DNA of 64,000 nt, from the NCBI GenBank assembly GCA_016124645.1, contig WGNE01000002.1, positions 23,334 through 87,333 of the forward strand, read 5' to 3'. Of this stretch, positions 42,511 to 44,122 are shown in pieces; the stretch's first letter is position 1; every line of letters begins with the position of its first letter. This DNA comes from Alphaproteobacteria bacterium (GTDB taxonomy: Bacteria; Pseudomonadota; Alphaproteobacteria; Micavibrionales; UBA2020). A program made the translations under genes and the position numbers. The notes below the pieces were generated by a model that had not been told where the DNA came from, searched no databases, and saw nothing but the letters and a program-made list of their open reading frames with translations.

Positions 42511-43607
42511 GTTGTTTCTCCTTGAATCTGCGGTTGCGTTGCGACCCTGCCCGCGGGCATCCGCCGGACGGCCCTGACAAGGTATATGAAGATGAAGAAA
42601 AAGGCCACAGCCGCAATCCCGTGCTGCACGGGCGCGTTATGCGTCGCCACGGTGCCGAGCCCGGCCCACAGGCTGAAGCTGAGGTCATCGCCGAGGCCGA
42701 ACAGCAGCATTTCCGGCACGGGCCGCCAGCGCGCCTTCGCCATGCGCCATGCGGCGAAACAGATGATGCCGACGGAAAACAGCGTATAGCCCGCGAAGGG
42801 CAACACCCGCTTGGCCGCCATGACGTAGTGCAGGGCGTAAAAGACGACGGCGCAAAGCCCGATGAAGAAGGGCTTCAGCGGCGGCTTCCATCCCGCCTGC
42901 ACGGGCGGCAGATCCCTTTGCTTGCAAAAGCGGACGGCGATGAGGGCGAAAAGAACGGTCGCGATAATATAGGCGATGAAGATGACGGGGTAGGCGGGCC
43001 GCTGATGAAGGATAAAATGCAGCGGATAAAGCGCGGCGAAAAGCAGCAGCGCGACCTTCAGCCCGCGCGGCGAAAACCACCGCTGCGTGGCCGAGGCGGG
43101 ATAGGCCCAATGCGTGATGAGGATGGGATAGAGAACGCTGTGCATCGCGTGCCAGAAGACGATGAAGATGGCCCAGCCCCACTGGAACGGCCCCGTGCGC
43201 CCGTAGCCCGCGAAGGGGCCGACCGGCTGGCCGGAAAGCTCGGTCAGGGTTTTCGCCAGCACGCCCTCGTTCAGCAAGCCGTAGCCGAGGCTGAGGACGA
43301 CGATGCCCAGCACGTTCAGCTTCTTCGCCACCACCAGCTCGCGGATGAGCACGACCGGCAGGCCGTAGAACAGCGTGACCGCCACAAAGGCGGGCGGCGT
43401 GAAGAATTTCAGCAAAGGCATGTTGCCCGACAAAATCTCCGCCAGCGGGGCGGCGATGAAGAACAGCATCCAGAACGCGCGGCGGTGGGGCTTGCCCTCT
43501 CCCCGGCCCTCTCCCGCGAGCGGGAGAGGGGGAAGTGGGTTGCTTGTTCCCTCTCCCGCCTGCGGGAGAGGGTTAGGGAGAGGGGGATGCGCGGCGTTAC
43601 GGCTCAT
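42507..43607 (-). CDS. polytopic membrane protein of unknown function; N-terminal 46 aa encoded by a palindromic repeat element
   Basis: About 9 hydrophobic segments. The stop overlaps the FAH start (ATGA) and the start at 43607 overlaps the DUF559 stop (ATGA). The conservative start is MLFFIAAP at 43469. Confidence 0.6.
   Translation of the reverse strand: MSRNAAHPPLPNPLPQAGEGTSNPLPPLPLAGEGRGEGKPHRRAFWMLFFIAAPLAEILSGNMPLLKFFTPPAFVAVTLFYGLPVVLIRELVVAKKLNVLGIVVLSLGYGLLNEGVLAKTLTELSGQPVGPFAGYGRTGPFQWGWAIFIVFWHAMHSVLYPILITHWAYPASATQRWFSPRGLKVALLLFAALYPLHFILHQRPAYPVIFIAYIIATVLFALIAVRFCKQRDLPPVQAGWKPPLKPFFIGLCAVVFYALHYVMAAKRVLPFAGYTLFSVGIICFAAWRMAKARWRPVPEMLLFGLGDDLSFSLWAGLGTVATHNAPVQHGIAAVAFFFIFIYLVRAVRRMPAGRVATQPQIQGETT
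43495..43586. repeat. composite palindromic repeat element, locus 2 (2 cores)
   Basis: Cores at 43507-43530 (CCCTCTCCCGCGAGCGGGAGAGGG) and 43549-43572 (CCCTCTCCCGCCTGCGGGAGAGGG), with outer arms CCCTCTCCCC and TTAGGGAGAGGGGG. Confidence 0.85.
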
Positions 43608-44122
43608 GGCGTGCCCGCCTGCGGGAATAGGGCCAGGAAGAGGGCTTCAAGCACGCCCTGCGTATTTTGAAGGACATCGTTGTTCCAGAACCGCACGACC
43701 TCATAGCCTTTTTGCGTCATGAAATCCGTTCGGGCTTCGTCCGCGGCATTCCCGCAATGCTGGCCGCCGTCGATCTCGACGATCAGTTTTTTCTCGATGC
43801 AGATGAAATCCGCGAAATAGGGGCCGACGGGGTGCTGGCGTTTGAATTTCAGGCCTTGGAACCTTTTGGCCTTCAGTTCATGCCAGATGATTTTTTCGGC
43901 ATCGGTCTGGTTGCGGCGCAGGGTTCGGGCGCGCAGGGTGGTGCGGCGGCGCTTTCGGGTTTTTCCCTCTCCCCGGCCCTCTCCCGCAAGCGGGAGAGGG
44001 GGTGGTTGGTCGCTTGTTCCCTCTCCCGCGCTCAGGAGAGGGGGAGATTGTTCACTTGTTCCCTCTCCCGCCTGCGGGATAGGGTTAGGGAGAGGGGAAT
44101 GCAGCGGCTTTCCCGGCGTCAT
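43604..44122 (-). CDS. DUF559 (Vsr/PD-(D/E)xK-like) endonuclease domain protein; N-terminal ~55 aa encoded by a repeat element
   Basis: [55 protein letters not shown]...[12 protein letters not shown] matches the DUF559 signature as I remember it. The ATG at 44122 overlaps the hmgA stop. Confidence 0.8.
43965..44097. repeat. composite palindromic repeat element, locus 3 (3 cores at 42-bp spacing)
   Basis: Cores at 43977-44000, 44019-44042 (degenerate) and 44061-44084 (one mismatch). Same outer arms and same orientation as locus 2. Confidence 0.85.

Follow-up and report, generated by a model that had tools for sequence, protein, structure and literature searches.

In a stretch of 64,000 nucleotides of DNA from an Alphaproteobacteria bacterium of the lineage Micavibrionales (GenBank assembly GCA_016124645.1, contig WGNE01000002.1, positions 23,334 to 87,333; hereafter the window), a gene of the DUF559 protein family lies between inverted copies of a dispersed palindromic repeat known as BoxC, PIT or TM_ECO. 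The same association, in the same geometry, recurs around DUF559 genes across bacterial phyla, the two ends of the units co-vary, and the block found in the window is lacking from the corresponding operon of the two nearest relatives. The element appears to be a widespread compact unit in which a gene for a putative Vsr-like (EDxHD-type) DUF559/YcjD nuclease of about 100 residues is framed by inverted BoxC/PIT/TM repeats, and the window copy has been inserted, together with extra repeat pairs, into an operon of hppD, hmgA, a membrane-protein gene and a fumarylacetoacetase-family gene (FAH). We put at about 0.5 the probability that the BoxC/TM repeats have DUF559 as their cognate nuclease, which would nick or cut the motif and leave host repair to spread its copies. 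Repeat and protein family were both known already, and the link between them appears to be new; no literature connecting DUF559 with BoxC/PIT/TM was found in a search that left subscription literature largely uncovered, and an earlier note is possible.

Identity of the repeat

The 11-mer CCCTCTCCCGC, with at most one mismatch allowed, occurs 20 times in the window compared to 2.9 expected (none of 100 shuffles reached 20), and its matches are confined to four loci at positions 37174-37260, 43495-43586, 43965-44097 and 50019-50150. The arm sequences were traced by full-text search to Holder et al. 2015 (PMC4666352). The repeat has borne three names in succession, BoxC, PIT and TM_ECO, the last as an intrastrand triplex motif (Bergler 1992; Hoyne and Maher 2000; Holder et al. 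2015, PMC4666352), and its published consensus is CCCTCNCCC-N3-6-GGGNGAGGG-N3-GGGNGAGGG (PMC4666352). This consensus has five exact matches in the window, compared to none expected from 100 shuffles; relaxing it gives six, four of which flank the DUF559 gene. By this match, the repeat of the window is assigned to BoxC/PIT/TM_ECO and is not a new one.

A published census counted 3,610 copies of the motif in 262 proteobacterial genomes, with types A (second loop TTA) and B (second loop CCG) often paired in inverted configuration. Genome variability is raised around the motifs; their loci are unusually variable in E. coli, and most E. coli motifs sit at conserved loci. Remnants of transposases or integrases near the motif were explicitly not found, PIT elements showed neither promoter nor terminator activity, and the triplex is said not to form in RNA (PMC4666352).

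Where the arms are asymmetric, a run-length test found the third arm to mirror the second in 14 cases and to copy it directly in one, with four ties; an initial mirror-versus-direct test had been uninformative owing to register ambiguity. For example, the arm GGGGGAGGG is accompanied by a third arm that is its mirror image, GGGAGGGGG. Asymmetric copies were found at loci L013, L044, L046, L052, L056, L072, L075, L077, L079, L089, L119, L146 and L201. This constraint suggests indirect evolutionary support for the triplex geometry that was proposed from in vitro work.

Arrangement of the repeat around the DUF559 gene

Each unit of the repeat has three arms. Arm A (CCCTCTCCC) forms a hairpin with its partner A' (GGGAGAGGG), and the third arm is either B' (GGGAGAGGG), which follows the hairpin, or B (CCCTCTCCC), which precedes it; the order A-A'-B' is here named Y, and its reverse complement, B-A-A', is named X. 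Two composite loci, each made of two three-arm units in inverted orientation, bracket the gene, and reading along the gene strand one meets X (type A), a hairpin, Y (type B), DUF559, a decayed X, then another X (type A) and Y (type B).

The 5' composite locus contains, next to the gene, a type B motif at 43965-44000 on the minus strand, which matches the TM_ECO consensus exactly, is separated by a 19-nt gap from the 5' side of the DUF559 domain and reads A-loop-A'-CCG-B' on the gene strand; a Y of equivalent position and orientation is present at 59 of 80 other DUF559 loci. Its outer member is a type A motif at 44061-44096 on the plus strand, which fits the relaxed consensus with one arm mismatch (GGGATAGGG), and an extra two-arm hairpin, CCCTCTCCCGCGCTCAGGAGAGGG, lies between the two motifs at 44019-44042. 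The 3' composite locus is formed by a type B motif at 43495-43530 on the minus strand, abutting the point where the membrane-gene sequence resumes, and a type A motif at 43549-43584 on the plus strand, both exact matches to the consensus. The window thus holds two inverted A and B pairs, 43495-43530 with 43549-43584 and 43965-44000 with 44061-44096. As single-stranded DNA, the composite loci could form hairpins of 33-36 bp (z -7.2 to -7.7); in the 5' locus the arms are 39 nt long, the type A region being 85% complementary to 43962-44000. At the gene's 3' end, a decayed X (43614-43645) encodes the last codons of the DUF559 open reading frame (ORF). It stands at an X position that is conserved in the family, where homologues hold an intact X and have tails such as PSPRPSP*.

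The sequence-only reading of this DNA had already placed the gene between the two composite palindromic loci, with coordinates and sequences that agree with ours, and had observed that both open with the same sequence, as they do (CCCTCTCCCCGGCCCTCTCCCGC at 43495 and 43965). It described them as direct copies in the same orientation. This is true of the composite loci as wholes, in both of which type B precedes type A on the plus strand, but not of the units nearest the gene, which are mutually inverted (5'-[A A' B']-gene-[B A A']-3'). It is this inverted relation, and not the direct one, that counts.

The spacers within the pairs (about 16-18 nt; 43530-43549, 44000-44019 and 44042-44061) are alike, reading AACAAGCAACCCACTT, AACAAGCGACCAACCA and AACAAGTGAACAATCT on the gene strand, and this likeness suggests that an X-spacer-Y pair may be copied as a single unit.

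Recurrence of the association

Among the 120 best protein homologues of the window protein, 103 have C-terminal tails and 54 have N-termini that are encoded by the repeat. Translation of the tails makes use of each of the three frames (PLPxAGEG, LSRxRER and SPxxGRGE), and the conservation therefore lies at the level of DNA, not of protein. These widespread repeat-coded ends bear out the suggestion of the sequence-only reading that similar Pro/Gly/Glu-rich N-termini are frequent in DUF559 proteins of other high-GC Proteobacteria. Since the full-protein query itself held repeat-coded residues, the census was redone with domain-only queries, both at the DNA level and in an exhaustive protein search.

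The DNA-level census, based on a domain-only alignment (A1) with one genome per species, confirmed at least 588 loci, of which the best 80 were kept. These 80 loci, to which the following counts refer, span Alpha-, Beta-, Gamma- and Deltaproteobacteria, Deinococcus, Nitrospirota, Aminicenantes, Elusimicrobia, Dehalococcoidia, Planctomycetes and a Melainabacteria-type lineage, with G+C contents of 36-71%. Their layout is near-universal: 5'-Y, domain, X-3', with median gaps of about 38 nt before the domain and about 30 nt after it. The nearest upstream motif is Y in 59 loci (74%), the nearest downstream motif is X in 63 (79%), and both hold in 50 (62.5%); two loci are free of the motif. Among 683 control ORFs from the same loci, the corresponding values are 2.8%, 3.1% and 0.15% (1/683), which amounts to a 400-fold contrast for the Y-gene-X arrangement. 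Other DUF559 copies are thus flanked by the repeat, and the condition that the sequence-only reading had named as refuting its proposal, copies without this association, was not borne out.

Two further measures of the same loci agree with these counts. Within 200 bp of the gene, three-arm motifs reach a density of 6.9 per kb, compared to 0.13 elsewhere and 0.016 after block shuffling. The flank-to-flank inverted-repeat score, over ends of about 35 nt, has a median of 22.25 compared to 8.0 at 14,081 control positions, and lies above the 99th percentile of the controls in 63 of the 80 loci. The exhaustive domain-only protein search yielded about 23,000 clusters at 50% identity. Repeat-coded flanks were found in at least 83 of the best 150 cluster representatives, which is a lower bound because variants escape the search pattern and many ORFs end before the repeat.

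Co-variation of the unit ends and dispersed copies

Similarity is 0.556 between the two ends of one unit and, far lower, 0.248 between ends of different loci, and an end ranks its own partner first in 22 of 53 cases. The co-variation extends to the loop sequences and to a lineage-specific mini-hairpin in the second loop, which shows compensatory changes. Motifs lying more than 500 bp from the gene likewise resemble the DUF559 flanks of their own genome (0.507, compared to 0.231 for others), and 58 of 129 rank their own locus first.

Gene-less copies dominate. When metagenome loci were selected by the motif, 4 of 120 (739 kb; about 3%) encode DUF559, in each case with the gene beside the motif and in one of the four with a frameshift. 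Away from the gene in the 80 DUF559 loci, adjacent Y-X pairs occur as well, and 15 of 22 are non-overlapping, with spacers of 13-119 nt. The window itself contains a gene-less X-Y pair with an extra arm at 37174-37260, between convergent genes, and a gene-less Y-58 nt-X arrangement at 50019-50150, whose outer geometry is that found around DUF559. The 58-nt spacer of the latter was considered as a possible gene remnant and rejected, its alignment score being at the level of shuffled sequence.

E. coli K-12 carries 23 motifs and one ycjD. In a spread sample of E. coli chromosomes, matched places number 12-29 in ycjD-positive compared to 1-20 in ycjD-negative ones, a comparison that is confounded by phylogroup; B2-like strains have 1-4 places and O157:H7 has 14. 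Published motif counts are 23-29 for MG1655 and 55989, one for IHE3034, none for Salmonella and 143 for E. asburiae (PMC4666352). MG1655 carries ycjD, and the motif-rich E. asburiae is among the best YcjD homologues while Salmonella, which lacks the motif, is not. Strains 55989 and IHE3034 belong to phylogroups B1 and B2, respectively. The site between sapF and fabI is occupied by alternatives, namely ycjD in phylogroups A, B1 and C or the eefRABCD efflux island in B2, D, E, F and G (L081 and L202), and 3,346 of 5,426 complete E. coli genomes contain the ycjD region in full. The strain and species comparisons fit, without being phylogenetically independent, a repeat that depends on the nuclease. 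As to whether repeat abundance is independent of DUF559, abundance tracks ycjD in E. coli, in a comparison that phylogeny confounds.

Insertion into the operon

The whole inserted block comprises about 617 bp (43487-44104, minus strand) and is lacking in the syntenic operons of the two nearest relatives, L203 and L205, whose membrane-protein homologues (334 aa) are 65-67% identical. In both relatives the stop codon of hmgA overlaps the start of the membrane gene (ATGA), with neither DUF559 nor the repeat in between. The block is an insertion, as the sequence-only reading had proposed for a cassette between hmgA and the rest of its operon. Alignment across the junction places the event about six codons into the membrane gene. 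That gene's ancestral start (MTPGKP…) is now found at 44122, where it heads the DUF559 ORF on the other side of the insert, and the membrane gene resumes at GKPHRRAFWMLFF. Stop-start overlaps (ATGA) are present at both new junctions, 44119-44122 and 43604-43607, and the frames remain open through the repeats. No known transposase was found among Pfam matches in the block, where DUF559 is the only gene. The sequences GGAAAGCCGC and GGCAAGCCCC, which flank the block and are identical at 8 of 10 positions in this single empty-site comparison, could be a target duplication, though as a sign of one they are weak.

In another locus (L216), a DUF559 unit lies inside a gene for the acyl-CoA carboxylase alpha subunit and divides it into two coupled ORFs of 497 aa and 166 aa, with stop-start overlaps (ATGA or TGATG) at 2997-3003 and 3529-3535. 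Of 77 DUF559 ORFs in the 80 loci, 18 terminate in an NTGA that overlaps a downstream ORF with a length of 80 aa or more. Insertion into operons without polar effects may be something that the unit tolerates or for which it is selected.

Two candidate empty sites were rejected since they leave the ends of the element undefined. In E. coli O157:H7, the eef island replaces ycjD and no repeat is kept at the junction, and the hemW-yggN interval of E. coli, considered as the empty counterpart of an Enterobacter DUF559 locus, holds classical repetitive extragenic palindromic (REP) sequences and other genes.

The DUF559 protein

The DUF559 ORF as called occupies 43604-44122 on the minus strand (172 aa; Pfam PF04480). 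The domain corresponds to residues 60-164, or 43631-43945 (minus strand; Pfam E 4.5e-38), and scores 129.9 bits compared to a cut-off of 20.6, with profile positions 2-107 of 109 covered. The presence of the domain had been recognized from the sequence alone, with a range (43604-43930) that was slightly off. Residues 1-59 and 165-172, outside the domain, are translated repeat sequence, and DUF559 and MTES_1575 are the only Pfam matches of the ORF. The NCBIfam model PRK09767 (YcjD) gives a score of 96.9 (E 7.9e-28), and because this is below the cut-off of 218 set for that equivalog model, the window protein is not an orthologue of E. coli YcjD.

An AlphaFold2 model of the window protein has a pLDDT (predicted local distance difference test) of 90.3. 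Structure search with Foldseek matched it to 3HRL (TM-score 0.80), to the catalytic domain of I-Bth0305I (3R3P; 0.69, E 2.8e-4) and to Vsr (0.54). A sequence profile searched against the PDB found only 3HRL, and no Vsr chain at E up to 1. From the predicted structure, DUF559 is assigned a Vsr-like fold derived from PD-(D/E)xK. In the domain alignment, E15, D44, E55 and D57 are invariant and H61 and D88 are present in at least 90% of sequences; the window protein has all six, and by their conservation these acidic and histidine residues are taken to correspond to the EDxHD/Vsr active site.

A single study provides the only tested function that was found for DUF559: the Caulobacter DUF559 protein VsrA, which is linked to cytosine methylation, elicited the SOS response upon deletion of a methyltransferase, which indicates that proteins of this kind are able to damage DNA in vivo.

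Proposed mechanism and alternative explanations

In the mechanism that we favor, DUF559 would recognize the hairpin or the triplex-forming motif and nick or cut there. Repair of the break by copying from other repeat-bearing loci would then spread single repeats and pairs and, occasionally, the gene. The gene-bearing unit would be the counterpart of the gene for the REP-associated tyrosine transposase (RAYT) that serves REP and REPIN sequences, with a different enzyme fold. We infer this action on the repeats, and this route of copy spread, from the recurrent Y-gene-X geometry, the co-variation of the ends, the likeness of dispersed copies to the flanks in their own genome, the gene-less majority, the empty site in relatives, the homing endonuclease as closest characterized fold and the DNA damage associated with VsrA. 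The relationship would resemble a REP/RAYT-like or a homing-like one; with regard to REP/RAYT it is an analogy and not membership, because the nuclease is not an HUH transposase. The wider proposal, that YcjD-type DUF559 and BoxC/TM form an unrecognized mobile or selfish class in which a minimal Vsr-like nuclease drives the spread of the motif and of itself through host break repair, is offered tentatively, and we regard it as the less probable outcome.

Several points weigh against a cognate nuclease that spreads the repeat. A protein of 100 residues has no strand-transfer or ligation activity, and therefore any spread must rely on host repair. A target duplication is doubtful. From 14 to 20 motifs persist in E. 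coli lineages that lack ycjD, in a strain comparison confounded by phylogeny, and conserved loci account for most of the E. coli motifs (PMC4666352). Near-identical copies at different sites were not found among the loci, and hence there is no sign of recent bursts. Among 72,556 plasmid records, 30 contain the domain, most of these being chromids, and among 50,697 phage records it is present in 2. A plasmid or phage vehicle was rejected as the domain is very rare on both, and so was recent transposition: the identical protein P0073, present on 22 contigs, has one context at all eight places shown, and two units in one Rickettsiales genome have diverged to roughly two-thirds DNA identity as judged by eye.

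Alternatively, DUF559 could be a homing-type parasite of repeats that spread otherwise, for example by template switching at hairpins or triplexes. It would cut gene-less pairs and be copied into them with the repeats of about 35 bp as homology arms, without dispersing the repeats themselves. This is consistent with a homing endonuclease, I-Bth0305I, as the nearest characterized fold, with the position of the gene between two repeat halves and the existence of gene-less Y-spacer-X sites (50019-50150; 15 of 22 pairs), with the optional gene at about 3% of repeat loci, with the finding of both X-gene-Y and Y-gene-X, and with partial gene duplications beside repeats (L012 and the 3' fragment of E. 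coli ycjD) that resemble abortive conversion. However, the insert of the window entered a site that is free of the repeat in relatives, and homology-driven homing therefore cannot explain this event; furthermore, the gene-less Y-X spacer bears no trace of the gene, and the protein lacks the extra DNA-binding domains of I-Bth0305I. We consider this explanation, the main rival of the one we favor, unlikely. It is also quite improbable, in our view, that the repeats merely serve or travel with the gene as cis elements (hairpins at the mRNA ends, a portable ribosome-binding site or translational coupling) while the nuclease acts elsewhere, as a repair or restriction-type enzyme of the kind proposed for Caulobacter VsrA, and that the dispersed repeats are leftovers of dead units. 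The inner G-rich arm (GGGTGAGGGG or GGGAGAGGG) lies ahead of the first in-frame start at a Shine-Dalgarno-like spacing (median 9.5 nt, and 3-15 nt in 26 of 52 cases), with GTG and TTG counted as starts so that chance contributes, and it could double as a ribosome-binding site. The stop codon within the hairpin loop in Enterobacterales, the reading frames that the repeats leave uninterrupted, with overlapping stop and start codons at either junction (the window and L216), and the tie between VsrA and cytosine methylation point the same way. Against such a role, the window gene has no adjacent methyltransferase gene, PIT elements have no promoter or terminator activity, and the third arm mirrors the second (14 cases to 1 direct), which fits a DNA triplex that is said not to form in RNA (PMC4666352); the X-Y pairs, with conserved 16-nt spacers and opposite arm order, are also unlike the product of a simple gene deletion.

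Passive co-location would require that repeats and small acquired genes gather in permissive or unstable intergenic sites, or that insertion near gene ends occurred by chance. The unusual variability of motif loci in E. coli (PMC4666352) and the sapF-fabI hotspot, which holds either ycjD or the eef island, are in its favor. It is strongly disfavored and very improbable, given an orientation and spacing that are fixed across phyla, the 400-fold difference from the control ORFs that share the loci, the co-varying ends and, in Enterobacterales, last codons of the ORF that are built from the motif.

Comparison with known systems

Like BoxC/PIT/TM_ECO as described in the literature, the repeat studied here has the exact consensus, forms inverted A/B pairs, is present in multiple copies and lies outside genes proper. 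The literature describes it without an associated gene, whereas here DUF559 is found inside the repeat frame and recurs there across phyla. Compared to REP/REPIN sequences with their RAYTs, the similarity consists in a lone small nuclease gene between inverted copies of a dispersed palindromic repeat, in gene-less singles and inverted pairs that far outnumber the gene, and in flanks that match copies dispersed in the same genome. As enzymes, RAYTs belong to the HUH/Y1 class, of IS200/IS605 TnpA type, whereas the fold predicted for DUF559 is Vsr-like and derived from PD-(D/E)xK. REP sequences are species-specific, whereas the BoxC/TM arms are nearly constant from Rickettsiales to Deinococcus.

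Miniature inverted-repeat transposable elements (MITEs) and Rickettsia palindromic elements are palindromic insertions that can stand in frame within genes. The DUF559 unit shares with them terminal inverted repeats, repeat sequence that is read as protein and frame-preserving insertion into coding regions (the window and L216), but it lacks a transposase of the DDE or any other known type, shows no clear target duplication and has a nuclease gene as its cargo. With Vsr and VsrA it shares the superfamily, VsrA having a DUF559 domain and damaging DNA in vivo, but the window gene has no adjacent partner cytosine methyltransferase. I-Bth0305I (PDB 3R3P) is an EDxHD homing endonuclease from a phage group I intron, with N-terminal NUMOD DNA-binding modules (PMC3239194). 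It is the closest characterized structure, with an active site derived from Vsr, and its gene is selfish and mobile; in contrast, the window protein is a bare catalytic domain, free-standing, chromosomal and framed by repeats, and does not reside in an intron or intein.

Variants and individual examples

The arms of the unit occur as CCCTCTCCC, CCTTCCCCC and C5/G5 variants. On plasmid pAQ6 of Picosynechococcus PCC 7002 (L213, 20685-21772), DUF559 has the three-arm framing with short C5/G5 arms (CCCCC…GGGGG…GGGGG), and the architecture therefore outlives the particular arm sequence. The reverse order, X-gene-Y with the third arms outside, is found in Deinococcus, in a metagenome-assembled genome of Gastranaerophilales and at one other locus (L036, L072, L032 and L215). 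The second-loop mini-hairpin is present at both unit ends in some lineages (L008, L010, L014, L016, L021, L028, L042 and L078); in L014 it differs between the ends with the pairing kept (CGGATTGC/GCAATCCG compared to CGGATCGC/GCGATCCG). Loci with an upstream Y, such as L001, L009, L017, L021 and L024, number 59-60. In one Rickettsiales genome (L012, about 10300-10560), the unit is followed by a second Y and the first ~30 nt of the gene.

In Enterobacterales, 87 of 106 YcjD homologues end in …PSPRPSP*, which corresponds to a type B X with the TGA in its hairpin loop. In E. coli K-12, ycjD has its stop codon within a decayed X, in the loop, and this X is followed by a duplicated 3' fragment of the gene and then by a type A BoxC upstream of fabI; this second ycjD 3' end, between the decayed X and the fabI BoxC, is seen at 5205-5430 of L081 (minus strand). 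We take the fabI (envM) copy beside ycjD to be the place of the first description of the repeat. Enterobacter asburiae has a gene-X-Y unit at a different locus, between hemW and yggN, and the Neisseria gonorrhoeae gene behind 3HRL, the only solved structure, has a decayed Y upstream.

The host operon of the window

All members of the operon are on the minus strand, in the order hppD (45407-46495), hmgA (homogentisate 1,2-dioxygenase; 44119-45402, Pfam HgmA_N and HgmA_C), DUF559, a membrane gene of the AF_0692 family (42507-43469) and the fumarylacetoacetase-family gene (41497-42510). Upstream of the insert, the TGA of hmgA overlaps the ATG at 44122. Downstream, the membrane ORF was called as 42507-43607 (366 aa), of which the 46-residue N-terminus is translated repeat; homologues of 320-340 aa align from M47, that is, from a start at 43469. 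No cytosine-5 methyltransferase gene lies beside the DUF559 gene, whose neighbors are hmgA and the AF_0692-family gene. A scan for promoters and terminators showed no enrichment around the insert, and Rfam, searched over 36500-51000, gave nothing at the gathering score and only chance matches of the palindromes to microRNA-hairpin models.

Implications

For annotators, these results mean that many DUF559 termini, as well as the N-terminus called for the neighboring membrane protein, are translated repeat. BoxC/PIT/TM has been known since the early 1990s from thousands of copies in hundreds of genomes and has been tied to local instability, without a partner protein; the link to DUF559 provides a first candidate partner enzyme. 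The link turns two unknowns into one testable hypothesis, that YcjD cuts or binds BoxC, for which E. coli K-12 is a ready model, its ycjD being adjacent to the BoxC copy at fabI. If true, the reading as a selfish system would explain the origin of the repeat, the conservation of its sequence across phyla and the instability of the surrounding genome, and it would offer an example from nature of a triplex-forming DNA structure being read by a protein.

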